A stretch of 64,000 bases of DNA, from the IMG/VR virus record IMGVR_UViG_3300025876_000016; one strand, written 5' to 3'. Source of the stretch: a virus. This document shows, piece by piece, positions 5,106-63,595 of the stretch. How positions within the stretch are numbered: position 1 is the first letter of the stretch; every line of letters starts with the position of its first letter. The position numbers and the translations under genes were made by a program. A model generated the notes under the pieces. The model made no database searches. It was not told the origin of the DNA and saw nothing but the letters and a program-made list of their open reading frames with translations.

Positions 5106-5288
5106 ATGTTAAAAGATATTTTCACGAAAGAAATGATGATTAATGCAGTTGTTACTCTTGGTGTCGTAATGGTAGGTCTTGCTGTTCACGATAAATTTGT
5201 ACGACCAAAAATGATGCAAAGTAACGATTCAACGCCTTCACCTGCTCCTGCTCCTGCTCCTGCTCCTGTAATGGATGAAGAAGCATAG
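5106..5288 (+). CDS. Small membrane protein with Pro-Ala tail
   Basis: One hydrophobic helix, (PA)n repeat; lies just upstream of the capsid candidate. Confidence 0.7.
   Translation: MLKDIFTKEMMINAVVTLGVVMVGLAVHDKFVRPKMMQSNDSTPSPAPAPAPAPVMDEEA
5241..5268 (+). repeat. (CCTGCT)4+ coding microsatellite
   Basis: Encodes PAPAPAPAP. Confidence 0.85.
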
Positions 5289-5334
5289 GCAAACAGGTGA
5301 TTTTTTTAATAATTAATAACTAATAACAGAAAAA

Positions 5335-6078
5335 ATGACAAAAAACAATTTTGACATTGATGCGTACCTGTTGGAAGCTGAAGAAAGATTTTCAGGTTTT
5401 GATGGTGTAGATGATTATGACGATTGGGATATGGATGAAGATTGGGATGGAGTTGATGGCGACTACTCAATGGCTTCAGGCGGTGGAGTGAATATGCTTA
5501 AAGCACCTTCACCTTACCAACTTACAGTTCAAAATACCACAGCAGGTAGTTTGACAGTTGTATTGTTTGGTAAAAACCAATTTCTTCTTTCAACGAACTT
5601 TGGTTCTGCGACAGGATTAATTGTAACACCTTCACAGGCAAATGTAACTTACCTTGAATTGCTTCAGCAATCTGCTGACCAACCATTTGAAACTTCACTT
5701 TTGAGAGTGCAATCTTCAAATGCTTCACAGGTAACTCAAATTTTGACTGTAACTGTAAAAGATGCGAATGGACAAAGTGCTACTTTGCCAATTATTACGC
5801 AGTCTTACTTCAGTTCATATCAGCAACAATCAGGAATTTTAGATGTTCCTTACAACCTTAAAGTTGATTCTAATACATCTATTACTTCACCGATTCTTGC
5901 AAACACAACGGTTACTTATACATTCTTCCCTGCGGAGAAAGTAAATGTTTCTAAAGGTCTTGCAGGTAAGAAACCTGTTCAGATTTACGGAAACCCACAA
6001 GTAAACTTGGGTGGTATGACTTTCCCTAAAAGACCTGCTTCTTTAGGTGGTCGAGTTAGAAAAAGACTTGGAAGGTAA
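5335..6078 (+). CDS. Candidate major capsid protein (jelly-roll-like beta domain, acidic N-terminal segment, basic C-tail)
   Basis: Beta-strand periodicity; homologous to domains in 12089 and 30706; first large gene of the operon, followed by a strong terminator; fold is inferred. Confidence 0.55.
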   Translation: MTKNNFDIDAYLLEAEERFSGFDGVDDYDDWDMDEDWDGVDGDYSMASGGGVNMLKAPSPYQLTVQNTTAGSLTVVLFGKNQFLLSTNFGSATGLIVTPSQANVTYLELLQQSADQPFETSLLRVQSSNASQVTQILTVTVKDANGQSATLPIITQSYFSSYQQQSGILDVPYNLKVDSNTSITSPILANTTVTYTFFPAEKVNVSKGLAGKKPVQIYGNPQVNLGGMTFPKRPASLGGRVRKRLGR

Positions 6079-6120
6079 TTAAGAGCCTTTCGCTCAATAA
6101 TTAACCGAATAGATAATTGT

Positions 6121-6158
6121 GAAAGGCAAATGACTTATGTTGTTTGCCTTTCTTTTTT
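6121..6158 (+). terminator. Intrinsic terminator
   Basis: GAAAGGCAAA/TTTGCCTTTC 10-bp stem followed by a T run. Confidence 0.8.
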
Positions 6159-6167
6159 AAAAAAATA

Positions 6168-6587
6168 ATGGAAAAAATATCTTTACAAGAACTAATAGCG
6201 ATAAACAATACACCAAAGGCAAAAGCATTAATTAGCCGATACGGTTATGACCCTGCACAAAACTATGAGGATTTAGTTTATAAACTTTTCAGATTAACTA
6301 AAGATTATAAAAAGGAAGCATTAAAAGATTTAGCTGAATTGCATCCACATAAAGACTTAATTTTAAATTATTTCCAAAGACCTGAATGTGATTGTCAAAA
6401 ACCTGAAAAAATTAGAAAAAGAATAGGAAAAAGATATTCTAATTTTGATTTAGCAGATGATTACATTGATGTAGAAGGGAATAATAATAAATTAGAAACT
6501 AAAGTAGATACTATAAAAGAGTATATGCCTATGATTGCTATTGCAGGTATTTTTGCTCTTGCTATAACTTCGATTAGTCGTAAATAA
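6168..6587 (+). CDS. C-terminally anchored membrane protein
   Basis: ATG at 6168; YSNFD motif; C-terminal TM helix. Confidence 0.7.
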   Translation: MEKISLQELIAINNTPKAKALISRYGYDPAQNYEDLVYKLFRLTKDYKKEALKDLAELHPHKDLILNYFQRPECDCQKPEKIRKRIGKRYSNFDLADDYIDVEGNNNKLETKVDTIKEYMPMIAIAGIFALAITSISRK

Positions 6588-7085
6588 ATGGAAACAGGTA
6601 TAAAAAATAACCTATCATTTGTTTTAACTGAAAACGCACCAATACTTTCATTGAAGGGAAGCAAGGTAGAAGATTCAGGCAAAAAATTAGTCAAAGGAAC
6701 GGTTGTAAATGGTTTGCTTAAAACAAGGGTTGTTAATATAAATGGAGAAAAAGTAGCATATAAATTTATAGAATTAGAAAATAAAAAAGGTTATATTTCA
6801 CCACAAGTTGTAAATTTGTATATAAGCACTTTTGCAAATTATGAAGGTGAAGCTAAAAACAAAGATGGCACACCTGTAAAAGAAACTTCTTTTGGTGAAA
6901 AAGAAGCTGTTAAAAAAAGAACAAAAAAGAATTATTTAATTAATTACGGACTACCAATAATAGGTGGCGTAGTTGGTTATCAAATAGCAAAAAGAACAGG
7001 AGCAGATAATAAAAAAACATTAAGCTATGTTCTTTTCTTCGGTTTGTTGGGGTGGCTACCGAGATATATTAATAAAACAAAATAA
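6588..7085 (+). CDS. SH3-like domain protein with C-terminal TM hairpin
   Basis: Beta-rich N-domain ending KGYIS; FANYEG motif; two hydrophobic segments. Confidence 0.55.
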   Translation: METGIKNNLSFVLTENAPILSLKGSKVEDSGKKLVKGTVVNGLLKTRVVNINGEKVAYKFIELENKKGYISPQVVNLYISTFANYEGEAKNKDGTPVKETSFGEKEAVKKRTKKNYLINYGLPIIGGVVGYQIAKRTGADNKKTLSYVLFFGLLGWLPRYINKTK

Positions 7086-7091
7086 CGAGTT

Positions 7092-7739
7092 ATGATTTAT
7101 GTAGAAAATGATTTTTATTCTAATTTTCAAGGTGCGGTAAAATCTAATGACGACCAATCTTTGAGAACAATGTTTGTAGACCAATTATCTAATATAATTG
7201 CAAAACATAGGGGAGAATTATTGGAATTGTTTCAAAAATCAGGTGTAAGGACAAGTGCTAATCCTTCAAATGAAGAAATTGTAAACTTAATTATTTTAAA
7301 CATTAAGGTAAATGTAAAATTAAGAGCAGGATTATCTTTTTTAATTGCAAAAAATAATGACCTACTTGCTACTTCAGTAAAAAATAATCGTAGCAAAGGA
7401 GATAAAGGCAATAAACAAAAGGAAGAAAAAATTAATTATGAGAAGTCAGCAGATACGGTTACATATATAGCTAATTCTCTTAATTTATTAATTAATGATT
7501 TAAAAGGAAAATCCTTAAATTCATTTAAAACAAAACTACAACAACAAACAAATAATAAAGCACCTAATTTTTCTTCACAAGCATATTCTAAAGTAGAGGG
7601 TGAATCGCCAAAGCCTAAAAAGAAAAGCAATAAGTGGAAATGGGTTTTATTAGCTGTTGCGGTAGGTGGAGTTTATTACGCATATAAAAAAGGTATGTTT
7701 AATAAATCAGTAGAAACAGGCGGTATAATTGAAAATTAA
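7092..7739 (+). CDS. C-terminally anchored membrane protein
   Basis: N-terminal YSNFQG motif; KKSNKWKW followed by a TM helix. Confidence 0.7.
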   Translation: MIYVENDFYSNFQGAVKSNDDQSLRTMFVDQLSNIIAKHRGELLELFQKSGVRTSANPSNEEIVNLIILNIKVNVKLRAGLSFLIAKNNDLLATSVKNNRSKGDKGNKQKEEKINYEKSADTVTYIANSLNLLINDLKGKSLNSFKTKLQQQTNNKAPNFSSQAYSKVEGESPKPKKKSNKWKWVLLAVAVGGVYYAYKKGMFNKSVETGGIIEN

Positions 7740-7744
7740 AAAAT

Positions 7745-7864
7745 ATGTCTAAAAAGTGGATTATATTAGGTAGTATTCTTGCAGTTGGATTAGGTGTAGG
7801 AACGTATTTTATTATTAAAGGAATTAATAAAGGAAATTCCGAAGATAATGAAGAAAAAAAATAA
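7745..7864 (+). CDS. Small membrane protein (39 aa, not in ORF track)
   Basis: MSKKWIILGSILAVGLGVGTYFIIKG..., fills the gap between genes. Confidence 0.6.
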   Translation: MSKKWIILGSILAVGLGVGTYFIIKGINKGNSEDNEEKK

Positions 7865-7882
7865 TAAATTAAAATAAGAAAT

Positions 7883-8422
7883 ATGGCTTTCGAAGAATTA
7901 GATATGAATAGTACGGAATGGGAAATTTTTCATAATTCAGAGGGTATGTTAGTTCCAATTATGGATGAATACCCTTCTCCTGAAAACACATTTGATGTTT
8001 GGTCAGGTGTTGATGATGCAAAAACAACAACTCCCCCACCAACGGAACAAACAAGACAAGGAATAGACCCAAACGCTCTCGCAGGTGCATTGACAACAGC
8101 AGTATCGGTAGGTTCTCAACTATATGCAAATAGAGATACATCTAAAAGAGAATTAAAAAATGTATGTGGTGGTAAACCTTTTTGTATTGGTAAAAACCGT
8201 TGTAGAGATAAAAAAGATAAATACGAAGCCTGTAAAAAGGAGTTTTATATGGGAAGCGGTGGATTTAAGTCAGGCGGTACACAGCAAGAACAACAAATGC
8301 CTGTTTATACCCCACAACCACAACCAACAGGAATGTCTACGACAGCAAAAGTAGGAATTGCTTTAGGAATTGTTGCTTTAGGAGTTGGCGGTTATTTTTT
8401 ATATAAAAGAAGTCAAAATTAA
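7883..8422 (+). CDS. Membrane protein with Cys cluster
   Basis: FHNSEG/WSGVDD motifs, Ala/Thr-rich helix, 4 Cys, C-terminal TM. Confidence 0.7.
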   Translation: MAFEELDMNSTEWEIFHNSEGMLVPIMDEYPSPENTFDVWSGVDDAKTTTPPPTEQTRQGIDPNALAGALTTAVSVGSQLYANRDTSKRELKNVCGGKPFCIGKNRCRDKKDKYEACKKEFYMGSGGFKSGGTQQEQQMPVYTPQPQPTGMSTTAKVGIALGIVALGVGGYFLYKRSQN

Positions 8423-8428
8423 AAGTAA

Positions 8429-8968
8429 GTGGCTCGTAAAACCGTATATGAATTATCATTTAGTTATGAAGCACCTGATTTAATAAAATCTGAACGAGCA
8501 GGTAAAATTGTTACGCAGTTTTTTGAAGAAGGTGAAATGATTATTGGTGAACCATATCAAAAAACAAAAATAATTGTAGAGGATAGGTTTATTATTCCTT
8601 TGGATTATGTTGAGAAAACTGAAAAGTTTCCATATTTAAAAAAGGATAGCAAATTTGATGAATCCATTAGTAGAATAAAGGAACAATCAGTTTTAATGAG
8701 CGAAAAACAAGAACAAGAAATAGACAAATTTGGTGAAAACGTCAAAGAAGTCGTTGAAGGTAAAACAAAAGTGAAATTAGATAAAGAATCGAAAGCATAT
8801 AAAAATGGTGCTTTAATCGGTTTAGGAAGTGGTGTTTTACTTGCTCTTTATTTAAAAAAGAGCGTTTGGATGTTAGGTTTATTAGGTGTAGCTATTGGTG
8901 GGTATGTATCACACAGATTAAATAAATCAAAAGAAGGAAATAATATTGTAAAACCAATTAGTGAATAA
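8429..8968 (+). CDS. Membrane protein with C-terminal TM hairpin
   Basis: GTG start; two Gly-rich hydrophobic helices. Confidence 0.65.
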   Translation: MARKTVYELSFSYEAPDLIKSERAGKIVTQFFEEGEMIIGEPYQKTKIIVEDRFIIPLDYVEKTEKFPYLKKDSKFDESISRIKEQSVLMSEKQEQEIDKFGENVKEVVEGKTKVKLDKESKAYKNGALIGLGSGVLLALYLKKSVWMLGLLGVAIGGYVSHRLNKSKEGNNIVKPISE

Positions 8969-8969
8969 A

Positions 8970-9566
8970 ATGGCAAATTTAGATTTAGATATAGATTTTA
9001 ACGGATTAAATAATGATATTTTAAATAAATCCGAAAGTGAAAGAGTAGATATATACCCAAGAGTTGTAAGATACGCTTCAGGGAAGGGTATTTCAAAGAG
9101 GGCGGTAGATAATATGATGCTTGAAGTTGCAGGTAAATATTCAAATATTACTGATGAAGAACTTCGAAAGGAAGCCCTATCAAGTAAAGAGTGTTCTCAA
9201 TTCAAATCAGATTCATCCGTAACACTTCCTACAAAAGAAGCAGAATTAGAAGCGTGTGTTAAATCATATATTGATAAAACAAAAAAGAGAGAATTAAGGA
9301 AATCTAAAAACGCAAATTTTTGGAATACATTAATAGGAACTGTAAATCAAGTTAGTGAGAATTTGAATAAAAATAATACTCAAAATACAGGCAATAATAA
9401 TAATAATAATAATGACTTCAGAAATGACGACCCTTTGCCTGATGCAGACCCAAGAATTTTGGGTATGAAACCTTTGGTATTTACCCTTGTTGCTTTAGGT
9501 ACTGTTACTACATTGGCAATAGTTACCGTACTATTAATGAAAAGAGGAAAAACTCCTAAAAAATAA
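8970..9566 (+). CDS. C-terminally anchored membrane protein
   Basis: ATG at 8970; Asn-rich linker; ILGM + TM + KRGK tail. Confidence 0.7.
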   Translation: MANLDLDIDFNGLNNDILNKSESERVDIYPRVVRYASGKGISKRAVDNMMLEVAGKYSNITDEELRKEALSSKECSQFKSDSSVTLPTKEAELEACVKSYIDKTKKRELRKSKNANFWNTLIGTVNQVSENLNKNNTQNTGNNNNNNNDFRNDDPLPDADPRILGMKPLVFTLVALGTVTTLAIVTVLLMKRGKTPKK

Positions 9567-9570
9567 TCTG

Positions 9571-11265
9571 ATGAAAAAAGAAACTACGCAAACTCCACAA
9601 AAAAATAAGGCGAGAAGAATACTTTCATCATTAAGGAATAAAGAAAGAGCCTGTAATACCAAACTTCAAAAAATTGGTTTAAGAATTAAACTTCTTGAAG
9701 AATTTGTAAATGAAACAAAAGGCAAGAAAATAACTCTTGCAAAATGGCTTGGACAAAAAGGTTACGATTGTGGTGTTTTATTTCCATCAATGGGTTATTA
9801 CACCCCTATTGGTCAATCAGTATCTTACGACAAAGAAAACAGGGATTTAAGCTATATGAAAGGTATGGCTCGTAATCCTGCAATAAAAGGTTATGTTCCT
9901 GAACCAAATGTAGTTGGTTCTGCGAATCATAAAATAATTACAAAGTCTAAATTAGGAATGACTTTTGACCCTGCTTTAAACTTATACTTTCCTACAACAA
10001 TTTTTGATACAGAATTATATGCAAGTGCTGAAGGTGAAGGTGAAGATGTAATGGATATGGTGGGATTTTATTCATCTGAAGATATTTCTCGTTTTAGTGC
10101 TTTTAATGATGATTCAGAGGATGTTGTTGATAATTTAATTGAATTATATGAGGAAGAATACGATAATGTTGAAGGGGAATTAGATACAATTTACGCTGTT
10201 CAAGAAAAATTGGGTTATGGAGAGGATTTTTCTAATGCAAGTGCAGGTAAAAATGCAACTTGTCGTTTTGGGTGTAATTTTAAGAGAAAATCAAAAAGAG
10301 CAGGATGTTTTACCGATTGCGATAAGAAACATCCACCTTCTCAAAAACAAGAAGAAAGAAGGGATAAGCAAGGTGAAAGGAGAACAGAAAGAAAAGAAAA
10401 TCGTGAAGAAAGAAAAGATGCTCGACAAGATAAGAGAAAAGCAATAAAGGATTGTAAAGCTGAAGTTAAATCAGGTAATATTTCAAAAAAGGATTTAAAA
10501 GCCTGTAAAAAAGAGCAAAAGAAAATAAAAAAAGAAAGAATAAAAGAAGCAGGTGGTAGTTTCTTGGCAAGAGTTGGTAGAGGTTTTGCTAAAGTATTTC
10601 CTTTAACAGCATCAGCAAGGGGTGGTGTATTAATTCTTGCAAGAATGAACGCTTTTGGTTTTTCAACAAGAGTAGCACCATCAATTTTACCTGAAGGTGA
10701 ATCTAAAAAACTATTTAAAGGTGTTGCTATAAAGAATGGTAAAAAGGCTTGGAAAAAGATACAAAACGCTTTTAGAAATTTAGGTGGAAATCCTAAAAAA
10801 TTGGAAGAAGCAATACTTAAAGGATATAAAAAGAAAGCCACTAAAGTAGAGAAGGAATCTTCAGCAGATGGCTATACAAAATTTACTGTTTCTAATTTTT
10901 CTAATGCAATAGACCCTGCAACAGCAACTTTAATTGGAACAGGTATTACAGCTTTAGTTTCTCTTATTGCTATTTTAGTACAAAACAAAGTACCTAAAGA
11001 CCCATATTTAGATGGTGAAGCACCTGATGATTGGAATCAAAGTAAGAGTGCAACAGATGAATTACCACCACTTGACCCAAATGAACCACAATTAGACCCA
11101 AATACAGGTGAATGGATAGACCCTGCGACAGGAAAGGTTATAGACCCAATAACAGGTGCATATAAGGGTGAAATATTTGGTATGAATCAATATTTATTTT
11201 ATGGATTAATTGGCGTTGGTGCAGTAGGGATTATATTGTTGATAAGAAAAATGACAAAAAAGTAA
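9571..11265 (+). CDS. Large multi-segment virion membrane protein
   Basis: Basic, acidic and Cys segments; several copies of the shared motif; internal hydrophobic helix; DPxTG repeats; C-terminal TM. Confidence 0.7.
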   Translation: MKKETTQTPQKNKARRILSSLRNKERACNTKLQKIGLRIKLLEEFVNETKGKKITLAKWLGQKGYDCGVLFPSMGYYTPIGQSVSYDKENRDLSYMKGMARNPAIKGYVPEPNVVGSANHKIITKSKLGMTFDPALNLYFPTTIFDTELYASAEGEGEDVMDMVGFYSSEDISRFSAFNDDSEDVVDNLIELYEEEYDNVEGELDTIYAVQEKLGYGEDFSNASAGKNATCRFGCNFKRKSKRAGCFTDCDKKHPPSQKQEERRDKQGERRTERKENREERKDARQDKRKAIKDCKAEVKSGNISKKDLKACKKEQKKIKKERIKEAGGSFLARVGRGFAKVFPLTASARGGVLILARMNAFGFSTRVAPSILPEGESKKLFKGVAIKNGKKAWKKIQNAFRNLGGNPKKLEEAILKGYKKKATKVEKESSADGYTKFTVSNFSNAIDPATATLIGTGITALVSLIAILVQNKVPKDPYLDGEAPDDWNQSKSATDELPPLDPNEPQLDPNTGEWIDPATGKVIDPITGAYKGEIFGMNQYLFYGLIGVGAVGIILLIRKMTKK

Positions 11266-11276
11266 TTCGTAAAAAA

Positions 11277-12086
11277 ATGAACGTGGATATTCCATCTAAT
11301 CACTTCCCATTTCAACTTTCTGTAACAGTAGAGAGTAAAAAACCTGTTTTGGTGCGAATGGTTGCTTATGACCCTAATAAACCTGCAACTCGTTATGGAG
11401 ATATTGGTGGGAAGGTAGATGGTAAACGTATTTTCACTTTAAGATTTCCTGTATCACCAAAAAGATTAAAATTAAAAATATTTAATCCTGAATTTGGAAA
11501 CTTACCTTATGGTGAGGATGTTTCTTTTAAGTTATTGGATATGAAAGTTCAAAAATTAAAAGAATATGATGTTTGGTGGAATCAAGACACTAAAAACTTT
11601 TACAAGTTTGCTGTGGAATTTAGTGAAAACGCAAGTATATTATCATCAGGAGAGAATAAGCCACATATTTACCGTTCTGACGATGGAAAATTTACGATAG
11701 ATTATTATAATATTATTATAGATAGAAATACAAATAAAAGATTAAGCACACCTGCGAGAATTGGTCATAATTCAGGAATTATTGAAGTTTCGAAAGCTAA
11801 ATTTCTTGACTACACAGTACCGATGCGTTTGGTTATTCTTTTACACGAATACGCTCATAAATATTTGAATCCCAAAATAAGTAGGAAAATCGAATATGAA
11901 ACAGGAGCAGATATTCAGGGTTTATATATTTATCTTGGAAAAGGATGGTCGCCTTTAGAAGCACATAAATCGTTTTTAAAGGTATTTAAAAGTTCTAATA
12001 ATAAAATGAATCATAAAAGATATAAAATCATCAGAGATTTTATTGAAAAGTATGATAGAGGGAAAGTTGAACGTATGAAGGTTTAA
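11277..12086 (+). CDS. Zincin-like metalloprotease (HExxH)
   Basis: LLHEYAH at 11844-11858 with downstream E..AD (YETGAD). Confidence 0.65.
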   Translation: MNVDIPSNHFPFQLSVTVESKKPVLVRMVAYDPNKPATRYGDIGGKVDGKRIFTLRFPVSPKRLKLKIFNPEFGNLPYGEDVSFKLLDMKVQKLKEYDVWWNQDTKNFYKFAVEFSENASILSSGENKPHIYRSDDGKFTIDYYNIIIDRNTNKRLSTPARIGHNSGIIEVSKAKFLDYTVPMRLVILLHEYAHKYLNPKISRKIEYETGADIQGLYIYLGKGWSPLEAHKSFLKVFKSSNNKMNHKRYKIIRDFIEKYDRGKVERMKV

Positions 12087-12088
12087 TT

Positions 12089-14392
12089 ATGAGTTGTGAT
12101 ATAAAAAGTAAAAAAAAGAATGTTCAGTTTGATATTGTTAATACAACGTCAAACCCTATATTCTTTAATCTTTTTGAACAAGGTATTACAACAACACCAA
12201 CAACGGATAGCGGAGTTTCTTCACCGCCATTAGCTTTGTCCAATACAGCAATAGGCTTCAGCGAAACAGCTTGGATTGAAAGAAATACAAATACAAATGA
12301 AATTTATTATTTTATAAAAGTAGGTATAAATTGTTCTGTTGATGTTCGTCTTGCCGATGGCACTTTCGTTACAAATATACCGATAGGTGTAAATTGCTAT
12401 GCAGGTGGCACATTCTGTCCAACACAAAATAAATTATATATACCTGATTTTAGTGGTCGTACCGTAACGATAATTGATACAACTACAAATACAGTAATAG
12501 CGAATCCTACCATAATCGGTGTTGGTTTTCAGTTAAGAAATTGTTTATACATTCCAAGTTCAGATGAAGTTTGGGTTTTAACTACTGACCCTGCAATTCC
12601 TTGTCAGGTACTTAATGTAGTTACAGATGTTTTAGGTGGAACACCTGCATTACCCCCTTGTACGCCTGAAGGTATTTGTTATTATGCACCACTCGATTTA
12701 ATTTATATTGCGTGTAATTCTATATCTGCAATATGGAAAATAGACCCTAATACACAAACCCTTTTATTACAAACTGCAACAGCTATGTCTAATCCTGTTT
12801 CTTGCGGTGTTGTAAATGATGAAATATGGATAGGCGGTAGAAACACTAATAGATTTATTATTTATGATACCGCTACCGATGGTACGACAGACAAAGTTTT
12901 ACCTGCCATAGGTTCGATTTACAGGGGTAATTGGTTGTATGTTGATTATTGGGATAGAGTATATGCTTACGATAGTCTTAATGGAGTTGTTTACGGTATT
13001 GATACAAGCGGTGTAATACAAGAGCAATTAGTTGCAGGTGCAACAGCAAGAGGGATAGTTGCTATTCCCATTGGAACAACTAACTTGCTTGGATTTGCAG
13101 GAGCTACAACTTATACTTATGAAGGAACATCAGTATCAACACCTATATATGTAAGCGGTAGTGCCGATTACAACTTTTTCGTAAATAGTCTTGAAGGTCA
13201 GCCTATTAAACTTGATTGTATGGATATTATAAGTTCAACGCAAGACCAATTAAGCAACGCAATAACAATTAGCAAAACGGATGCCGATGGACACTCTAAC
13301 CAAAAACCTACGTTTCCTATTTTAGATGTTTCTGCGTGGCAGGAGCAAGGAAATAGGTCGTCAATACCAATGGGCGGTATTATTTTAGATGGTAGAACAT
13401 TTTTTTCTCAATATAAAGTTAATGCAGGTGAAACGGTGGTTTTTGAATTATGTTACGAGCAATTAAATCAATTTTGCTTTGGAGAACACCCTGAATTATT
13501 TACATCATTAAAACCTATTGCTAAACAAGAAAAGGAAAAAATAGAAAATAAAATAATAGAAAGAGATAAAAAAGAAAGCGGTGATGATGAATCTAAATTC
13601 GAAATAATAAAAGACAGTATTATTATTGATATTTCTATATCAAACAATACTGCAAATTCATCAACATTTAATTTGTTTCAGGCAAATCAAAATCAATTAA
13701 TAATTAATACACCTTCAGTTAATTTTGCAGATGTAGATGCGTATAATTTTCTTGTTCAACAGTTAAGAGAAAGTCCATTAGTTTTAAATGCTGTGGAAAT
13801 TGTTTCTTCTGACCAAAATCAATTAACCTTACCTGTTTCTGTAAAAACAGATGATGCAAATGGAGATAGCATTACATATCAGCATTTTCCTATTAATAAA
13901 GTTGCAAGTACGCAAGAGCAAGGCAACAGAGTTATTGTAAAAACAAATAATCTGATTTTAGATGGATATACAACATTTGCGAGTTATAATATATTACCTA
14001 ATACTACTGTTTCTTTTATTCTTTATTATAGGGAATTTCATCGTTCTTTATTTCTACAAAAACATTTTTTTACTAAATTAAAAAAGCCAATATTTTCTAA
14101 CGGAATGGGGTTTGCTGAAGAAATAGAATACTTTAATGAAGTAAGTAAAAAATCTAATAATAAAAAGACTATTGGAAATAATTTAAAAAATACAGAAAAA
14201 AACATTAATTTTGGAACTGAACAAGTCTTTTCTGTAAGTTTTAATGGGGAAAATAAAAATAACCCATTTATATCCACGACTAAAAATAAAGTTGGCGGTA
14301 ATAAAAAACGAATTAACCATAAAAAATATAACTATCGTGATTATCTTAAAAACAATCTCGATAATAATAATTATAAAAGCAATATCTATTAA
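12089..14392 (+). CDS. Candidate vertex/turret protein: two capsid-like domains with a beta-propeller insert
   Basis: Two repeats homologous to 5335; YVTN-like blades (NKLYIPDFSGRTVTIIDTTTNTV) inside the first repeat. Confidence 0.55.
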   Translation: MSCDIKSKKKNVQFDIVNTTSNPIFFNLFEQGITTTPTTDSGVSSPPLALSNTAIGFSETAWIERNTNTNEIYYFIKVGINCSVDVRLADGTFVTNIPIGVNCYAGGTFCPTQNKLYIPDFSGRTVTIIDTTTNTVIANPTIIGVGFQLRNCLYIPSSDEVWVLTTDPAIPCQVLNVVTDVLGGTPALPPCTPEGICYYAPLDLIYIACNSISAIWKIDPNTQTLLLQTATAMSNPVSCGVVNDEIWIGGRNTNRFIIYDTATDGTTDKVLPAIGSIYRGNWLYVDYWDRVYAYDSLNGVVYGIDTSGVIQEQLVAGATARGIVAIPIGTTNLLGFAGATTYTYEGTSVSTPIYVSGSADYNFFVNSLEGQPIKLDCMDIISSTQDQLSNAITISKTDADGHSNQKPTFPILDVSAWQEQGNRSSIPMGGIILDGRTFFSQYKVNAGETVVFELCYEQLNQFCFGEHPELFTSLKPIAKQEKEKIENKIIERDKKESGDDESKFEIIKDSIIIDISISNNTANSSTFNLFQANQNQLIINTPSVNFADVDAYNFLVQQLRESPLVLNAVEIVSSDQNQLTLPVSVKTDDANGDSITYQHFPINKVASTQEQGNRVIVKTNNLILDGYTTFASYNILPNTTVSFILYYREFHRSLFLQKHFFTKLKKPIFSNGMGFAEEIEYFNEVSKKSNNKKTIGNNLKNTEKNINFGTEQVFSVSFNGENKNNPFISTTKNKVGGNKKRINHKKYNYRDYLKNNLDNNNYKSNIY

Positions 14393-14394: not shown

Positions 14395-14526
14395 ATGAAA
14401 AAAGGTATTATTCAAAACTATGGAACTACTATTATAATTTTCGGTGCTATGATTGGTGTCGGATATTATTTATGGAAATCCCACAAGGAAGGAATTGAAA
14501 AAGATATTGAAGAAAATTTTAAATAA
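14395..14526 (+). CDS. Small membrane protein (43 aa, not in ORF track)
   Basis: MKKGIIQNYGTTIIIFGAMIGVGYYLWK... Confidence 0.6.
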   Translation: MKKGIIQNYGTTIIIFGAMIGVGYYLWKSHKEGIEKDIEENFK

Positions 14527-14585
14527 AAAAATTGTCGTGTGTTCGACCAACTAATAATTTATTATAAATTAAAAAATAAAAAAAA

Positions 14586-14966
14586 ATGGCTGTAAAAAAA
14601 AGACGAGGTAGACCAAGAAAATCTACAAGTACACCTGCAAAAAAGACAGGAGCAAAAAGAGGGCGACCTGCAAAGAAAAAGACAGTAGCTAAAAGAGGGC
14701 GACCTGCAAAGAAAAAGACAGTAGCTAAAAGAGGGCGACCTGCAAAAGCAAAAACTGTTGCTAAAAGAGGGCGACCTGCAAAAGCAAAAACTGTTGCTAA
14801 AAAGACTGTTGCTAAAAAGACAACCGCTAAAAAGAAAACTGCAAGAAAACTTGGATTAGGTGATTGTGGTGGCAAATTAACTCGTTCAAGACTTGTTGGT
14901 GGGTACGCACTTAAAAAGCGTGTTCGTAAGCCAAAAATGAAAAGACGAGGTAGACCAAGAAAATAG
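14586..14966 (+). CDS. Multi-AT-hook, histone-H1-like DNA-binding protein
   Basis: Six RGRP cores; K/A/T-rich repeats. Confidence 0.75.
   Translation: MAVKKRRGRPRKSTSTPAKKTGAKRGRPAKKKTVAKRGRPAKKKTVAKRGRPAKAKTVAKRGRPAKAKTVAKKTVAKKTTAKKKTARKLGLGDCGGKLTRSRLVGGYALKKRVRKPKMKRRGRPRK
14655..14798 (+). repeat. Four tandem 36-nt units encoding KRGRPAKxKTVA
   Basis: Two identical pairs of units. Confidence 0.9.
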
Positions 14967-14987
14967 TTTAAATAAAAAACAAAAAAA

Positions 14988-15872: not shown

Positions 15873-15966
15873 TGACTAAAAAAGAAAAAATATTCGCTGT
15901 TATGTATGGAGTATTATTTATTTCTTATGGTGTTATGCTATTTCATAAATTACCAAAACCAAAAAA

Positions 15967-16308
15967 ATGAAAGAATTAATGAATTTAAAAAATATCGCAG
16001 GTGTAGGTACAGGCGTAATACTTGGACATTTTGTTTTTAAAAGTAAAAACCCTTTAGTGCTAATGGCTTTTGGTCTTGGTGGCGGTATAGTTGCACATAC
16101 TATGTTGAAAAGTCGTCAGCAAAAAATCGACAAAAATCAGCAAGAAGTAAAAGACTATATGGAGCAAGTTGAAACTGATGTTGAAGCTACACTAATACCA
16201 ACAAAGCCTAAAAGCGGTGAAGCATTTAATCCTGAAGTTGGATATATAACGCCTTTTGGACAAGTTGAAGAAGATAATCCAAGAGAATATATGGATGTTT
16301 CTTTTTAA
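15967..16308 (+). CDS. Membrane protein (N-terminal TM hairpin)
   Basis: Two Gly-rich hydrophobic helices. Confidence 0.65.
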   Translation: MKELMNLKNIAGVGTGVILGHFVFKSKNPLVLMAFGLGGGIVAHTMLKSRQQKIDKNQQEVKDYMEQVETDVEATLIPTKPKSGEAFNPEVGYITPFGQVEEDNPREYMDVSF

Positions 16309-16317: not shown

Positions 16318-16527
16318 GTGAATAAGCAAACAAAAATTGCATTAATTACTTTCAGCGTATTTATGACTGAAGCGATTGTTCATTACAATTTTGGAAGTCA
16401 TAAACATACTGAAGATAAAAAATTCAAATTGCCACCAACTAATGATTTAATCAAAATTGGTGGCGTAGTTGCGGTTTTTAGCTTGATTAATGGATATGTA
16501 ATTAAAACAATAATAAATGGCAAATAA
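16318..16527 (+). CDS. Small two-TM protein
   Basis: Two hydrophobic segments. Confidence 0.6.
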   Translation: MNKQTKIALITFSVFMTEAIVHYNFGSHKHTEDKKFKLPPTNDLIKIGGVVAVFSLINGYVIKTIINGK

Positions 16528-59305: not shown

Positions 59306-59881
59306 TTATGAAGGTATTGGAGTACCCCCCTTTTTTAGATATTCAGCATACCAATTTGTTGTGGTGTTATAATATTGCGGTTTATAGACACGGTTAAATT
59401 CTTTTTGTAAACTATTTATAAGTTTCTGACCGTATTCTTTAACTAAATTATCTTTTTCGTTTTTATAGAATTTATCTTTGTATTTGATAAAGTTTCTACT
59501 TAATAATATCCAAGTACCCTGTGTAGCACCTAAACTAAAGGGTTCTTTGTTTTTACAATTAATTATTTGAGCAGTTGATGTAGGACACATTACAAATTGT
59601 TCATTAGAGAAAATATCATATCCTTTTGCTAAATCCTTTTTTAATTCAACTACATTGGGATTCTTTTCTAATTCCTCAACTTTTATTATTGCTTGTTCAG
59701 GAGAAGAATTAGTTTCTTTTTTTATTTCCTCAATAATTTCTTCTTTTGCTGTTTCTTCAATTTGCTTAATTGATTTTGGGATTTCGTTTTTCTTTTTTCT
59801 TTTATATATAAAATAAGAAATGACACCAATCAATCCGATAGAGCCACCTACAATTAAACCTATTTTTAAATTACGATTCAT
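59306..59881 (-). CDS. N-terminally anchored protein
   Basis: TM + KRKKK. Confidence 0.65.
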   Translation of the reverse strand: MNRNLKIGLIVGGSIGLIGVISYFIYKRKKKNEIPKSIKQIEETAKEEIIEEIKKETNSSPEQAIIKVEELEKNPNVVELKKDLAKGYDIFSNEQFVMCPTSTAQIINCKNKEPFSLGATQGTWILLSRNFIKYKDKFYKNEKDNLVKEYGQKLINSLQKEFNRVYKPQYYNTTTNWYAEYLKKGGTPIPS

Positions 59882-60468
59882 TAAATTTTAAAAAGTTTGT
59901 CGTCAGCATTATAATAACCAACCGTAGAGCCGAAAATTTTAGATAACATATTTTTTACATCAATACCTTCATAAGTACCTTTCTCAACTTGGTATTTTTC
60001 AGTAAATTCACTTTCTTTAGGTACAATTTTAACTTTAGTTCCGTTTTTATTTAGCCACTTGCCTGAAGCTATCCATTCGGGTTCTCCCTTTTTCTTTGTA
60101 TCGTAATCATAAGGAGTGTAATATATTCTAAAATCACCATCTTCATACCAATAACCTGAAAGTCTTTCGGCTTGTTTAGGGTTATTCATATCAACAATTC
60201 CAAAATAATAATAAGGATAAATTTTTCCTGCTAATTTGTCGCCTTCTCCACTTGTTCTTGGTTCGCCTAATTTAACTTCAGGTGAAGGTAAATATTCAGG
60301 GAAATTCTTTTTTAAATCTCCCCATTCCTTAACAGTTTTACCTGCGATTTTTTCACTCTTATCTGTTACTTTAGTTCTATTTCTTCTTTTTATATAAAAG
60401 TATGTTCCCACACCAATAATTAATACAGCAGAAGTTATTAATAATATATTTCGTGTTTTTTTAGTCAT
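59881..60468 (-). CDS. N-terminally anchored protein
   Basis: Start set at MTKK; TM + KRRNR. Confidence 0.65.
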   Translation of the reverse strand: MTKKTRNILLITSAVLIIGVGTYFYIKRRNRTKVTDKSEKIAGKTVKEWGDLKKNFPEYLPSPEVKLGEPRTSGEGDKLAGKIYPYYYFGIVDMNNPKQAERLSGYWYEDGDFRIYYTPYDYDTKKKGEPEWIASGKWLNKNGTKVKIVPKESEFTEKYQVEKGTYEGIDVKNMLSKIFGSTVGYYNADDKLFKI

Positions 60469-60521
60469 ATCGAATAAATTAATATCAAAAGCGAAATTAA
60501 GAAAAAACGAGTACAATTCAT

Positions 60522-60529
60522 TATATTTG
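60522..60529 (+). promoter_or_regulatory. Putative -7 promoter box
   Basis: TATATTTG at the divergence point. Confidence 0.45.
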
Positions 60530-60796
60530 AATGTGTAATAATTAATGGTAAGAATAATATTTATTGTTAATGAAATTATTATATAATGAATAACGATAAT
60601 AAAAAATCATATAGAATAGAAAAAACTAAAGATAAATACAAGTTAAAAGTCATTGATAAACAACAAGATAAGCCTGTTTTTACGATAACATTTGTTGAGG
60701 AAATGTCTTTTGAAGAAAGAGAAGAAATAATCATTAAGATTAATTCTGTTTTAAATTAATTATTTTATCGTAATTTAGCACATTAAAGATTAACTT

Positions 60797-61249
60797 ATGG
60801 CATTAAGTAAAAAACAAAAAATAATTATAGGTGTAGTCGGTGTAGCAGTAGTCGGTGTCGCAGTATATTTTTTAACTCGCAAAAAACCTTCAGAAGATGA
60901 TGAAGTTTCGGATGATATGGTTGATGATGCGTTAAAAAGTGCTGAATCAGGTACGCTTACAGTAACACCTTCAAATTCTTGTTCAGGAAACATAATGGGT
61001 TATTTGTCTTATCGTGATGGCGGTAAACATCCTGTTCATTTTGGTTCACCAAGACCTTCAGGAGGTTCTTATAAAGCAGGTGATAAAGTAAAAATATCCA
61101 ACACTTCTTTTGATGGAGAATATACTGTTAGTTCAGTATGGAATGATGCAAATGGAAATGTAGGTGCTGTTTATTTACCAATTAGTTATACACCAACAGG
61201 AAAAACGGATAGGACTTTTGAAAATAAAGGTTGTATCACAAAAGTTTAA
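60797..61249 (+). CDS. Anchored protein, paralog 1 of a tandem beta-domain family
   Basis: TM; FDGEY.V...W.D.NGNVGAVY...DRTFENK. Confidence 0.7.
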   Translation: MALSKKQKIIIGVVGVAVVGVAVYFLTRKKPSEDDEVSDDMVDDALKSAESGTLTVTPSNSCSGNIMGYLSYRDGGKHPVHFGSPRPSGGSYKAGDKVKISNTSFDGEYTVSSVWNDANGNVGAVYLPISYTPTGKTDRTFENKGCITKV

Positions 61250-61251
61250 AT

Positions 61252-61839
61252 ATGAAATTGGATAAAAAAAAGATGATGATTATTGGTGGCGTATTAATCG
61301 CTGTCGGTGTAGGTGTTTATTTTTGGCGTAAAAGAAAAGCTGAAGAAGATGCTCTTGAAGATTTAGATGAAGATACATTAGTTGATGAAGAAGCTGAATC
61401 AGAAGAATTAAAGAAAAGCACAACAGCAACAGATGAAACAGATGCAAAAGATAAAATTGCTGAAATTAAGTCTAAACGACCATTATTATTTTCTCCAAAT
61501 AATAAAAGACCTTCAAATACAAAAGGGTGTCCACCAAAATCTGTAAGAATGGGTTATTTGCAAAGACCAAAAGACAGTCCATTGTTGTCTGTTCATATTG
61601 CAGGTGAGGATAGACCAAAAGCAAGAAGTATTTTAAGGTCAGGCTATACAATTAAAATAACAGGTACGTCTAAATTTGATGGAAACCATAGAGTTTTTAA
61701 AACTTGGAGTGATAAAAACGGAAATATTGGGGCTGTTTATATAATGGTAAAACCGCAAAAATACGCATCAACAGAAACCGCAGATAGGACTTTTGAAAAT
61801 AAAGCCTGTATTTCGCTTGTTCGAAAAAGTCTTATATGA
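61252..61839 (+). CDS. Anchored protein, paralog 2
   Basis: ATG at 61252; FDGN..V...W.DKNGNIGAVY...DRTFENK. Confidence 0.7.
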   Translation: MKLDKKKMMIIGGVLIAVGVGVYFWRKRKAEEDALEDLDEDTLVDEEAESEELKKSTTATDETDAKDKIAEIKSKRPLLFSPNNKRPSNTKGCPPKSVRMGYLQRPKDSPLLSVHIAGEDRPKARSILRSGYTIKITGTSKFDGNHRVFKTWSDKNGNIGAVYIMVKPQKYASTETADRTFENKACISLVRKSLI

Positions 61840-62360
61840 AAAAGGGAGCAAAAATAGGAATTGGAATAGGAGTAGTTGTCGCATTAGGTGTTGCTTCATA
61901 CTTTTTGTTTTTTAGAAAAGATAAACCTAAAAAATCTGATTCTGATTCTGATTCTGATTCTGATTCTGATTCTGATTCTGATTCTGATAGTTTTAAAGAA
62001 ACTATATATCAAGGCAAAATAACTCATAGAGTTTTGGAAGGGGCTAAATGGATGGGGGGGTTTAGCGATAAAGAAAGTTATATTAAATTCACACCTTCTT
62101 CAAAAGCTAAAATTAATAAAGGAGATATTGCACTTATTTCTGATACGAATAAAGAATTAGATGGTGAATATCCTGTTCTTGGAGTTTATAAAAAGGACAA
62201 TGGAACTATAACTGCGGTAAAACTTGCGATTAATAAAAATTACCAACCTGTTTTTGTTGGAGATAAACAAAAAGATGAAACATTTAGTGGTTTTGGAAAA
62301 ATAAAAATATACAAAGAATCTAAATCCGACATTGGGGGATGTGGGTGTGGTGCTGTTTAA
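61836..62360 (+). CDS. Anchored protein, paralog 3, with Ser-Asp repeat stalk
   Basis: (SD)9; LDGEY.V....DNG.I.AV...DETF; ends GGCGCGAV. Confidence 0.7.
   Translation: MKKGAKIGIGIGVVVALGVASYFLFFRKDKPKKSDSDSDSDSDSDSDSDSDSFKETIYQGKITHRVLEGAKWMGGFSDKESYIKFTPSSKAKINKGDIALISDTNKELDGEYPVLGVYKKDNGTITAVKLAINKNYQPVFVGDKQKDETFSGFGKIKIYKESKSDIGGCGCGAV
61935..61988 (+). repeat. (TCTGAT)9 perfect microsatellite
   Basis: Counted nine in-frame copies. Confidence 0.95.
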
Positions 62361-62362
62361 GT

Positions 62363-62470
62363 ATGGATGATAGTAATAAAATATCTTTGGTTATTTTAAT
62401 AATTGCGATTGGCGGTTTGCTTGTTGCTTTTAATATGCCAAAACCAAAAGAAGAACAAACAATTAAATAA
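62363..62470 (+). CDS. Small membrane protein (35 aa, not in ORF track)
   Basis: MDDSNKISLVILIIAIGGLLVAF... Confidence 0.5.
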   Translation: MDDSNKISLVILIIAIGGLLVAFNMPKPKEEQTIK

Positions 62471-62478
62471 AAAAGAAT

Positions 62479-62607
62479 ATGAAAAAAATTTTAGACATTG
62501 TAAAAAGTAAAAACTTCCTTATAGGAGTTGCGGTTGGTGTAGCAGGTTTATATGCTTATAATAAATATGCAAATAAAGATTCAGCTACAATTACTATTAA
62601 GTCATAA
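62479..62607 (+). CDS. Small membrane protein (42 aa), paralog of the 20698 N-terminus
   Basis: KSKNFLIGVAVGVAGLYAYNKY vs KSKQFLMGLGIGFAGYWAYNKY. Confidence 0.65.
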   Translation: MKKILDIVKSKNFLIGVAVGVAGLYAYNKYANKDSATITIKS

Positions 62608-62633
62608 AGATTAATATTCTCTTTACAGGCTTA

Positions 62634-63167
62634 ATGCTGAAAATTAAAAAATATTTGAACATTCCATATAACGATGATATTAATTATCAACGTGCAGAAT
62701 TGATTTATTTAAAATCTTTGCCTAAAGATAAAATTTGGGCTGATAATGGTGATAATATACGTCAATATTATTACGACTATTTAGCTTCACAAAATAAAAC
62801 TTTAAGTGATGAACAAAAACTCAAAATAAAAATTTTTAGCAAAGGTCTTGTAAAACCTATAATGGCTTTAAAGAATCATTATAATCGACAAAGACCTTAT
62901 CAATTAGCGAAGAAATTAAATATGAGTTTTAAATTTGTACCTTTAGAAAGTGCAAAAACACCTGCATATCCTTCAGGACATTCAACACAGGCTGTATTTT
63001 TATCAAATATTATTGCAGACTATTTTCCTGAATTAAAAAATGATTTGAAATATGTTGCTAACGATATTTGTTTCTCACGTTTAATTGCAGGGGTACATTT
63101 TCCTTCAGATGATGTATTTGGAAGATATTTAGGCACAGAATTTTATAATCAAATAAAAAGAAAATAA
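62634..63167 (+). CDS. PAP2/acid phosphatase superfamily protein
   Basis: K..YNRQRP, YPSGH, SRL.AGVHF.SD. Confidence 0.85.
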   Translation: MLKIKKYLNIPYNDDINYQRAELIYLKSLPKDKIWADNGDNIRQYYYDYLASQNKTLSDEQKLKIKIFSKGLVKPIMALKNHYNRQRPYQLAKKLNMSFKFVPLESAKTPAYPSGHSTQAVFLSNIIADYFPELKNDLKYVANDICFSRLIAGVHFPSDDVFGRYLGTEFYNQIKRK

Positions 63168-63169
63168 AG

Positions 63170-63595
63170 ATGGACAAAAAAGATTTAGCGAGTAAAATGA
63201 CACCTTCTCAAAAAGCAAGATATATGAACATTACTTATCTCGCAGGGTCAGTTGCATTAGTCGGTTCAATAGGTGCTGTAATATATGCCAAGAAAACAGG
63301 TGGTGGTTTTTGGAGATATGTGGGTTATTGGATTGCAGGTGGATTAGTAGTAGGAATACCTGCAAGATTAGTGGCACTTCCTTTTCAAAATAAAATTTTG
63401 AGGGAAGTAGGAAATAATCCTGATGTAGAAACAAAATTAAGCAAATATTCACCAAGCGACATTTTAAAAAAAGCAGAAGAAGTTTGTGAAGCACAATATG
63501 AAGAATGTTTAAAAAAACAAACAAAAGGTGATTTTGGAAATTGTGGAAATTTGTTACAGCCCTGTAAAGATGCTTTCGTGAAGAAAAATAGTTAG
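63170..63595 (+). CDS. Two-TM protein with Cys-containing C-tail
   Basis: TM hairpin; four Cys. Confidence 0.65.
   Translation: MDKKDLASKMTPSQKARYMNITYLAGSVALVGSIGAVIYAKKTGGGFWRYVGYWIAGGLVVGIPARLVALPFQNKILREVGNNPDVETKLSKYSPSDILKKAEEVCEAQYEECLKKQTKGDFGNCGNLLQPCKDAFVKKNS

Follow-up and report, generated by a model that had tools for sequence, protein, structure and literature searches.

A stretch of 64,000 nucleotides of an uncultivated marine bacterial virus, from the IMG/VR virus record IMGVR_UViG_3300025876_000016 (hereafter the window), with a guanine-plus-cytosine (GC) content of about 30%, was analyzed for the proteins with terminal membrane anchors that it encodes. Open reading frames (ORFs) were called greedily, longest first, and then edited by hand; antisense and low-complexity ORFs were removed, and 14519-14998 on the minus strand was swapped for 14586-14966 on the plus strand, giving a curated set of 120 ORFs in four blocks. 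Block Z (149-4884) contains seven ORFs, with glycosyltransferases and sulfotransferases. Block A (5106-33124) contains 53 co-directional ORFs on the plus strand, 41 with a terminal anchor and 44 with some membrane segment, and is presumed to be the late or structural module. Block B (33190-59182) contains 50 ORFs, chiefly on the minus strand, among them genes for RecT, a PD-(D/E)XK nuclease, a UvrD-like helicase, a GDP-mannose 4,6-dehydratase and an epimerase. Block C (59306-63595) contains ten ORFs (two minus, eight plus), including paralogues of block A genes, and eight of the ten carry N-terminal anchors. The genome extends beyond the window in both directions, by at least 9.7 kb upstream (contig L007) and at least 4.6 kb downstream (contig L004); at least 78 kb has been seen so far, and the genome is incomplete. 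Extension of the contigs via flank proteins gained no further sequence.

Terminal anchors in blocks A and C

Three hydrophobicity criteria were applied to the encoded proteins. With the Kyte-Doolittle (KD) scale, a 19-residue window and a threshold of at least 1.6, a segment was found in 40 of the 63 ORFs of blocks A and C, 39 of these being terminal; by block, the counts were 33/53 in A, 7/10 in C, 8/50 in B and 0/7 in Z. The Hessa scale, with a sum of no more than 3 kcal/mol, marked 35 of the 63 (28 in A and 7 in C), together with three ORFs in B and none in Z. The third detector, which fits shorter glycine-rich helices, required an uncharged stretch of at least 13 residues with a mean KD value of at least 1.2 at a terminus, and it assigned a terminal anchor to 49 of the 63 ORFs (41/53 in A, 8/10 in C; 2/50 in B, 0/7 in Z). 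The difference between blocks A and C (49/63) and the remainder of the window (2/57) is highly significant (Fisher p=3.4e-18), and shuffling of residues within each protein of blocks A and C left a mean of 1.9 anchored ORFs, with a maximum of seven. When 16318, 16517 and 25361 are added, in which the segment is non-terminal or detected by KD only (ORFs are named here by their first coordinate), some membrane segment is present in 52 of the 63. Among the 49, 30061-30198 resembles a lipoprotein signal peptide, not an anchor. A sequence-only reading of this DNA had claimed that about 50 ORFs carry a terminal glycine-rich membrane helix, and these data bear out that claim, with the three criteria in agreement.

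The anchors (37 N-terminal and 13 C-terminal) have a mean length of 18 residues, and glycine makes up 17.6% of their residues, compared to 6.2% in the window proteome. An aromatic residue is present within the final five anchor residues in 43 of 50 anchors, and at least two lysines or arginines (K/R) follow within six residues in 42 of 50 (30/37 among the N-terminal anchors), in agreement with the further claim that the helix is followed by aromatic and then basic residues. This polarity, from hydrophobic to aromatic to basic, is alike at both termini. The short ORFs to which the same reading had drawn attention (7745, 14395, 19508, 24500, 26269, 62363 and 62479) are all present on the coding strand, each with a hydrophobic stretch; ORFs 5106, 7745, 24500, 24654 and 26269 have syntenic homologues with 39-75% identity in the related contig L020, and independent gene calls in public assemblies include several of the small ORFs. 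The uniform anchor module is a new feature. The anchor may be a glycine-zipper-like packing element or may reflect monotopic insertion, and its stereotyped form makes it directly testable as a membrane- or virion-targeting signal.

Relatives, capsid candidates, putative packaging ATPase and host signals

Relatives of the window were found via homologues of 5335 and 12089 on four marine contigs, two from IMG/VR (L010/G001, 102 kb; L011/G002, 97 kb) and two from NCBI metagenomes (L017, 148.5 kb; L020, 110 kb). In the genes downstream of the 5335 homologue, terminal anchors are present in 11/15 ORFs of L010, 30/43 of G002, 23/31 of L017 and 21/32 of L020, and many anchored proteins of the window have colinear orthologues in G002, which also contains a 10-kb sub-block of unassigned non-membrane proteins. 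L017 has a GC content of 41.6%, and the presence of the trait in this contig rules out a low-GC artefact. C-terminal anchors in L010, L011/G002 and L017 are usually preceded by the conserved motif (K/D)ILGMPK, which in the window is represented only in 8961 and 9571; the combination of ILGMPK motif, helix and basic tail is reminiscent of a signal for sorting or cleavage.

The gene at 5335-6078 encodes a 247-residue protein with no anchor and a predicted single jelly-roll at residues 55-215, and this protein is a candidate capsid protein. Its family is widespread: a search of 1.8 billion proteins gave 687 cluster representatives homologous to it at E<=1e-3. The 5335-type domain recurs in two copies (residues 357-454 and 514-750), after a propeller-like N-terminal part, in the 767-residue product of 12089-14392, which has no anchor, and in one copy in the 244-residue product of 30706-31440, where it lies between an N-terminal (6-20) and a C-terminal (227-241) anchor; the latter protein has an orthologue in G002. 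The jelly-roll model matches the PRD1 penton protein P31 and P3 and gave weak structural matches to capsid chains of PBCV-1, EhV-201 and faustovirus, and a Foldseek search of the 5335 model against the PDB returned nothing at E<=1e-3, only weak jelly-roll capsid rows. The jelly-roll capsid assignment is only moderately supported, and 30706, anchored at both ends, could tie the capsid lattice to a membrane. The 269-residue product of 11277-12086, which has an HExxH motif and no anchor, is among the most conserved proteins of the lineage (E=2e-82 to its G002 orthologue); its gene always lies directly 5' of the double jelly-roll gene, in the window directly upstream of 12089, and it is a candidate maturation protease or capsid-associated enzyme.

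Upstream of the window, L007:7562-8377 encodes a 272-residue P-loop ATPase with Walker A and Walker B motifs. The ATPase belongs to a conserved module (L007:5786-8380; also in L009, L025 and L043) consisting of a DnaA_C-domain protein, a protein of 434-462 residues and a HerA-like P-loop ATPase of 271-288 residues, and the gene before this module encodes a large polyvalent protein (ART-PolyVal) in L043 and is a 1582-residue ORF in L007. More than 180 homologous clusters make up the ATPase family, many with a precomputed PF01935 assignment; a phmmer search of the ATPase against the PDB gave a match to Walker A only. The assignment of this putative packaging ATPase is weak. A conjugative-element or type IV secretion reading was dropped, since the context is viral and no ATPase family of the VirB4 or VirD4 type was detected.

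No terminase, portal, HK97 capsid or tail family was found with Pfam or PHROGs in blocks A, C and Z, the ten largest proteins of block B and the flanks, and no tailed-phage hallmark was among the families listed for the 103 proteins of G002 (25 of 32 Pfam and 25 of 47 PHROG families). Direct searches of G001 and G002 for Terminase_6N (PF03237), Phage_capsid (PF05065) and Phage_portal (PF04860) were empty, with positive controls. The absence of these hallmarks is only suggestive, because all of the genomes are incomplete and divergent genes can escape profiles.

A Shine-Dalgarno-like core precedes only 5 of the 120 genes, and the stretch from -13 to -10 is rich in A. Intergenic DNA shows a 2.5-fold enrichment of TAnnTTTG, the -7 box of the Bacteroidota, but none of TATAAT or TTGACA; TAnnTTTG boxes lie 5-80 nucleotides upstream of gene starts (e.g., at 3024, 4917, 5038, 20948, 40648, 50596-50635 and 60522), the box at 5038 being 68 nucleotides upstream of the first gene of block A. 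The A-rich starts without Shine-Dalgarno sequences, the TAnnTTTG boxes and a CarboxypepD_reg-like domain indicate that the host probably belongs to the Bacteroidota. Homologues of the GDP-mannose dehydratase were scattered over several taxa (Phycisphaerales, Gammaproteobacteria, Pelagibacteraceae and others) and were uninformative on the host, and the largest contig with a homologue of the ATPase had no bacterial flanks and thus gave no host clue. Peptidoglycan hydrolases, an OmpA-like domain and promoter and translation signals of the Bacteroidota type led us to drop an archaeal or eukaryotic host.

Known membrane-containing viruses and rival explanations

The same detector found terminal anchors in 15/31 ORFs of PRD1, 7/21 of PM2, 11/68 of SSIP-1 and 9/82 of lambda. 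Virion membrane proteins with like anchors include PRD1 P16, P11 and P7/P14, PM2 P3 and P8, and the structural proteins gp34 and gp41 of SSIP-1; in these phages the anchor consists of a short basic lead or pre-anchor, a glycine-containing helix, an aromatic end and a basic residue, with 11-13% glycine. PRD1 and PR772 (Tectiviridae) resemble the window in that their late operons mix capsid genes with many small single-pass membrane proteins, and the anchors of PRD1 P16, P11 and P7/P14 have the same basic-hydrophobic(Gly)-aromatic-basic order. The membrane proteins of PRD1 enter the host cytoplasmic membrane, a patch is pinched off and capsid proteins assemble on that patch, muralytic enzymes are associated with the virion, and the internal membrane later forms a DNA-delivery tube (PMC6356626). 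Assembly from a cytoplasmic membrane patch enriched in phage proteins, as well as membrane-associated lytic factors, is described for both PRD1 and PM2, and the transmembrane proteins P3 and P6 of PM2 are thought to register capsomers on the membrane (PMC6356626). PRD1 differs from the window in scale (15 kb and about 15 such proteins, compared to at least 78 kb and about 50 here, with relatives of 97-148 kb), in the glycine content of the anchors (11.8% versus 17.6% in the window) and in its terminal protein, protein-primed polymerase and validated double-barrel major capsid protein (MCP), which were not found here; the two share no sequence similarity.

PM2 (Corticoviridae) has a marine host, an internal membrane and C-terminal glycine anchors with a short basic tail in P3, P8 and gp j, and the FGVPQK pre-anchor of P3 resembles the ILGMPK pre-anchor of the lineage; however, its genome is circular and only 10 kb, 7 of its 21 ORFs are anchored, and there is no sequence similarity. 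SSIP-1 infects a member of the Bacteroidota, and its icosahedral particle contains lipid and has capsid proteins with a single barrel (PMC6356626). The anchors of its gp34 and gp41 are glycine-rich and C-terminal, as in the window, but SSIP-1 is 43.8 kb with 57% GC and 11/68 ORFs anchored, and its proteins showed no similarity to the window proteins by phmmer or profile. The Helvetiavirae/Sphaerolipoviridae-like viruses (P23-77, IN93) have single jelly-roll capsid proteins, a packaging ATPase and an internal membrane, according to PMC6356626 and PMC8328091. This group, compared by description only, differs in its two-MCP gene pair, not identified here, and in genome size, the genomes here being about five times larger; the arrangement of 12089, with two tandem barrels and a propeller in one gene, is also unlike that group. 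Membrane-containing jelly-roll phages are thus a known kind, but those compared are small (10-44 kb, with about 7-15 anchored proteins), and it is the scale that is new, with a genome at least 2-3 times that of the largest compared (SSIP-1, 43.8 kb) and about 50 anchored proteins.

Among large eukaryotic DNA viruses, PBCV-1, poxviruses and African swine fever virus have dozens of single-anchor virion membrane proteins and an internal membrane under a jelly-roll lattice. The gene content here instead points to a bacterial host (peptidoglycan hydrolases, OmpA-like domain, RecT, and Bacteroidota-type promoters without a Shine-Dalgarno motif), and there is no sequence relationship. Signal-anchor-release (SAR) endolysins share weakly hydrophobic, glycine-rich helices on muralytic domains, and tail-anchored proteins share single C-terminal helices without a signal peptide. 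However, the muralytic domains here are mostly C-anchored (GH19 in 26404, M15 in 27241) or follow an N-terminal helix and a basic cluster (DUF2272 in 27834, where the helix is followed by Arg-Lys), which is not the SAR architecture, and tail-anchored proteins do not usually have short tails as strongly basic as those here. A tripartite sorting signal (LPXTG, PEP-CTERM or GlyGly-CTERM type) was likewise not found: 8961, 9571 and many proteins of the relatives have the C-terminal motif, helix and basic tail, but no N-terminal signal peptide. The interleaving of small membrane proteins with capsid-like genes that is typical of internal-membrane viruses was found (52/63 ORFs).

Taken together, these data suggest, short of proof, a large tailless phage with an internal lipid membrane very rich in protein. 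We rate at slightly better than even the chance that the window represents a new, large lineage of internal-membrane, jelly-roll-capsid phages in which the late operon encodes the virion membrane proteome and the host is probably a member of the Bacteroidota. In such a phage, the anchors would insert in the host cytoplasmic membrane, with the soluble domains of N-anchored and tail-anchored proteins on the cytoplasmic face. A membrane patch rich in anchored proteins would then be captured beneath a jelly-roll lattice, as in PRD1 and PM2, with 30706 as a possible tie between lattice and membrane, and the HerA/FtsK-like ATPase, whose gene lies in the upstream flank, would package the DNA. The anchored wall-acting domains have no signal peptides, and a separate soluble endolysin is present; the anchored GH19, M15, DUF2272 and OmpA-like proteins could be carried in the virion membrane and breach the cell wall during entry, and lysis would be carried out by the soluble amidase 22869 and its holin-like neighbour 22555.

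The sequence-only reading had placed a lipid membrane densely populated with proteins in the virion and, by the positive-inside rule, most soluble domains on the cytoplasmic side during assembly. The first part is partly supported in that the anchors are real, stereotyped and conserved, are encoded co-directionally with predicted jelly-roll genes, and have the style of PRD1, PM2 and SSIP-1 anchors, and in that no tailed-phage hallmark was found in the window, its flanks or two relatives of about 100 kb; the topology is weaker than that reading had stated. Among the N-terminal anchors, K/R residues are more numerous after the helix than before it in 29/37, which fits the rule, but both flanks are basic, and the N-flanks, with Met followed by two to four Lys, are like the n-regions of signal peptides. 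The C-terminally anchored proteins have no N-terminal signal peptide (32711, with its hydrophobic N-terminus, is a possible exception), which favors a cytoplasmic N-domain, and in that orientation the basic tail must cross the membrane. A cytoplasmic location of most soluble domains is thus no more than plausible. As a separate observation, a two-cysteine loop, C-x(2,3)-GG-x-[WYF]-x(5,6)-C, adjoins the anchors in 19614-20171, 24191-24499 and 29187-29675, and paired cysteines are present in several further anchored proteins; these hint at an oxidising location or at structural disulfides.

Several points weigh against an internal-membrane virion. The anchors, their conservation, the jelly-roll predictions and the lack of detectable tail or portal genes are computational results, whereas virion lipid, membrane insertion, topology, presence in the virion and a role in entry are inferred from the DNA. 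No known phage virion comes near 50 species of membrane protein, and many of the proteins here may thus not be virion components. About 12 of the anchors are short (13-16 residues), and the side after the helix has the higher net charge in only 19 of the 37 N-terminal anchors. The model of 12089 has a predicted local distance difference test (pLDDT) score of 60 and a predicted template modelling (pTM) score of 0.39, its double-barrel arrangement being a prediction only. The Pfam signals of the ATPase are weak (DUF87/HerA and AAA_22; DUF87 at E=1.9e-4 falls short of the Pfam cut-off), its best profile matches in the PDB are HerA proteins at E of about 0.06, alignment of its profile with PRD1 P9 by hhalign gave a probability of 13%, its best PHROG (phrog_2666) is labelled terminase large subunit, the sole 'terminase' label obtained, and no homologue was found in G001 or G002. 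In addition, related Atlas clusters are automatically labelled Uroviricota, and tail genes could lie in unseen DNA.

These last points would fit a virion without a membrane, maybe tailed and with its structural genes unseen, in which case the anchored proteins would act at the host membrane, in lysis, superinfection exclusion or envelope remodelling, or as a compartment or assembly platform. The incompleteness of the genome, the Uroviricota and terminase labels, the lysis-like genes 22555, 30061, 32359 and 32711 and the unassigned 10-kb sub-block of G002 are all compatible with this explanation. We nevertheless consider it unlikely: the window, flanks and two relatives of about 100 kb yielded no terminase, portal, HK97 capsid or tail family, the anchored and jelly-roll genes form one conserved colinear operon, as in PRD1 and PM2, with 30706 anchored at both ends, and no known tailed phage spends about 28 kb on some 50 single-pass proteins. 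An external envelope or a pleomorphic particle, cystovirus-like or plasmavirus-like and with the anchored proteins as envelope proteins, appears distinctly improbable. A large set of bitopic proteins whose soluble parts are sizeable, reaching about 300 residues, is more typical of an envelope, and a capsid role for the jelly-roll proteins is a prediction only; however, jelly-roll proteins with a HerA-like ATPase constitute the gene set of internal-membrane viruses (PMC8328091), and the double anchoring of 30706 suits a link between capsid and membrane. Sequence alone cannot discriminate between an envelope and an internal membrane.

A further explanation concerns export, with the N-terminal segments as type II signal anchors or SAR-like domains and the C-domains exported to the periplasm to act on the wall or outer membrane. 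The K/R cluster directly after the helix in 30/37 N-terminal anchors opposes translocation of the C-side, as is established for Sec export, and the 13 C-terminal anchors without signal peptides, including those of GH19 and M15, cannot be Sec signal anchors. PRD1 P16, a virion membrane protein, has the same flank pattern. These points make export a poor prospect, even though the N-flanks are like n-regions of signal peptides, the soluble parts include periplasm-type features (OmpA-like domain, DUF2272, paired cysteines) and the 17.6% glycine of the anchors recalls the weakly hydrophobic SAR domains of some endolysins. That chance hydrophobic stretches arise from low-GC codon bias or spurious ORFs is scarcely credible. 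A GC content of about 30% does enrich Ile, Phe, Tyr and Lys, the ORFs include several very short ones, and the spurious 14519-14998 is hydrophobic; however, the equally AT-rich remainder of the window has only 2/57 anchored ORFs and shuffled proteins about 2/63, L017 at 41.6% GC has the trait, the anchors are enriched in glycine, which has GC-rich codons, and the short ORFs are syntenic in L020 and called in public assemblies.

To the internal-membrane reading can be added the wider claim, to which we give somewhat less than an even chance, that this is the first view of a global lineage of large (about 80-150 kb), tailless jelly-roll bacterial viruses with about 50 virus-encoded protein species in an internal membrane, the glycine-zipper-like anchor, basic on both flanks, being a dedicated virion-membrane targeting module. 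If true, the genome size and membrane proteome would be several times those of any known membrane-containing phage, stretching the known size range of membrane-containing bacterial viruses, and the virions would be the prokaryotic equivalent of those of large eukaryotic DNA viruses, with their wealth of membrane. The population and sorting of complex viral membranes could then be studied in a bacterial model, and it would become plain that phage discovery in coastal blooms, centred on tails, has a blind spot.

Gene inventory, neighbouring genes and distribution

Coordinates are followed here by protein length and by the residues of the anchor or helix. The first gene of block A, 5106-5288 (60 residues; N-terminal anchor 14-27), is also present in L020 (75% identity) and L017. 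C-terminal anchors are carried by 6144-6587 (147 residues, or 139 from the ATG at 6168; 130-145; G002 orthologue), 6588-7085 (165 residues; a short anchor, 144-157), 7092-7739 (215 residues; 184-198; G002 orthologue), 7883-8422 (179 residues; 157-174; four Cys in the soluble part), 8961-9566 (201 residues; ILGM, then 172-193, then a basic tail) and 9571-11265 (564 residues; a helix at 450-470, then IFGM and the anchor at 541-558). Between these lie 7745-7864 (39 residues; N-terminal anchor 5-24; L020 homologue) and 8429-8968 (179 residues; adjacent helices 127-142 and 145-161; G002 orthologue). Downstream of 12089, the product of 14586-14966 is a 126-residue AT-hook protein (Pfam AT_hook) with no anchor, and L020 has an AT-hook gene at the corresponding position; ORF 14519-14998, which overlaps 14586-14966 in antisense on the minus strand, is hydrophobic but was judged spurious. 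N-terminal anchors follow in 14395-14526 (43 residues; 9-27), 14988-15872 (294; 9-24), 15872-15970 (32; 7-24), 16964-17512 (182; 8-29), 17493-18434 (313, with the start probably at Met8; 14-32), 18436-19023 (195; a short anchor, 4-18), 19044-19505 (153; 6-21), 19508-19621 (37; 4-24), 19614-20171 (185; 15-33), which has an OmpA-like peptidoglycan-binding domain (Pfam OmpA, E=5.7e-24), 20171-20680 (169; 9-23; G002 orthologue) and 20698-20922 (74; 13-27), a paralogue of 24191 and 62479. The same region contains 15967-16308 (113; anchor 30-43), 16318-16527 (69; a C-proximal segment, 44-62, seen with the KD window only) and 16517-16957 (146; a strong internal helix, 94-112, KD 2.77).

The holin-like candidate 22555-22869 (104 residues; N-terminal anchor 6-24, then a coiled coil) lies directly 5' of the soluble endolysin gene 22869-23840 (323 residues; PG_binding_1 and Amidase_2; no anchor), and the pair is kept in L020. 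N-terminal anchors are present in 23841-24185 (114; 7-26), 24191-24499 (102; 12-26; with the Cys-loop motif), 24500-24673 (57; 10-25; L020 homologue), 24837-25349 (170; 16-32), 25683-26243 (186; 7-25) and 26269-26400 (43; 7-21; L020 homologue), alongside 24654-24836 (60; anchor 19-39; L020 homologue) and 25361-25690 (109; helices 7-25, by KD, and 50-64). The product of 26404-27240 (278) has a GH19-like muralytic domain and a C-terminal anchor at 254-275, that of 27241-27837 (198) is a VanY/M15-like peptidase with a C-terminal anchor at 174-195 homologous to the 26404 anchor, and neither has a signal peptide. N-terminal anchors are found in 27834-28532 (232; 7-26, then Arg-Lys; DUF2272, E=1.2e-28; G002 orthologue) and 28532-28909 (125; 11-32). 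The very basic 97-residue product of 28893-29186, with a weak match to DUF5754 (E=5e-4), is possibly a DNA-binding core protein. C-terminal anchors are present in 29187-29675 (162; 139-157; CarboxypepD_reg-like domain) and 29678-30055 (125; 98-115), and 30061-30198 (45) has a lipoprotein-type signal, hydrophobic at 4-18 and ending in Cys. The block ends with 30185-30697 (170; N-terminal anchor 8-25; paralogue of 60797 and 61231), 30706, 31459-32349 (296; N-terminal anchor 6-25; G002 orthologue), 32359-32727 (122; N-terminal anchor 10-31, coiled coil) and 32711-33124 (137; hydrophobic N-terminus, coiled coil and C-terminal anchor 121-137). The products of 22555, 30061, 32359 and 32711 may act in lysis as spanin- or holin-like factors instead of being part of the virion.

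In block C, 59306-59881 (191 residues; N-terminal anchor 7-26) and 59881-60516 (211, with the start probably at Met17; anchor 24-42) are on the minus strand. The plus-strand genes are 60797-61249 (150; N-terminal anchor 9-27), 61231-61839 (202, with the start probably at Met8; anchor 15-32), 61836-62360 (174; N-terminal anchor 7-26), 62339-62470 (43, or 35 from the ATG at 62363; anchor 15-31), 62479-62607 (42; anchor 13-27), 62634-63167 (177; a PAP2-family phosphatase with no anchor detected) and 63170-63595 (141; helices 21-40 and 50-63). Four N-anchored proteins, 30185, 60797, 61231 and 61836, form a paralogue family with a common C-terminal domain (E to 4e-24) that is split over blocks A and C. 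The PAP2 phosphatase, amid the anchor-rich block C, may have a role in lipid or undecaprenyl-phosphate metabolism. A Pfam scan of the 63 proteins of blocks A and C found only 13 families: a wall-acting or wall-binding set (GH19, VanY/M15, DUF2272, Amidase_2 with PG_binding_1, Amidase_6 and OmpA), CarboxypepD_reg-like domains of two families, AT-hook, PAP2, an MRJP-like propeller and DUF5754. The PHROGs scan added mainly endolysin families.

Neither blastn of 9571-14392 nor tblastn of the jelly-roll protein and the ATPase gave a match in 50,697 GenBank phage records, and no description of the lineage was found in the literature searched or among GenBank phages. Single-protein scans of IMG/VR with 12089 and 21623 returned no match, and a look-up of the 21623 protein in the Atlas gave a score of 0.76, which is within noise. 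Identical genes are present on contigs from the North Sea and other marine metagenomes (JGI 3300001347, ENA KRUG19-1 scaffolds and SRR1699595), and DNA near-identical to 5106-14392 (23-88% of sampled 31-mers) was found in marine sequencing runs from 15 studies dated 2014-2025; there was no RNA run among the listed runs with matching DNA. The population is persistent.

Outside the anchor-rich blocks, a tRNA-Arg gene (anticodon TCT) is located at 56492-56566 on the minus strand, inside the replication and metabolism block B. The glycosyltransferase and sulfotransferase island at 149-4884, which is also present in relatives, is accompanied in the window by the GDP-mannose 4,6-dehydratase and a NAD-dependent epimerase at 54458-56477. 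These genes may allow the virus to synthesize or alter a glycan, either of its own particle or of the host surface.

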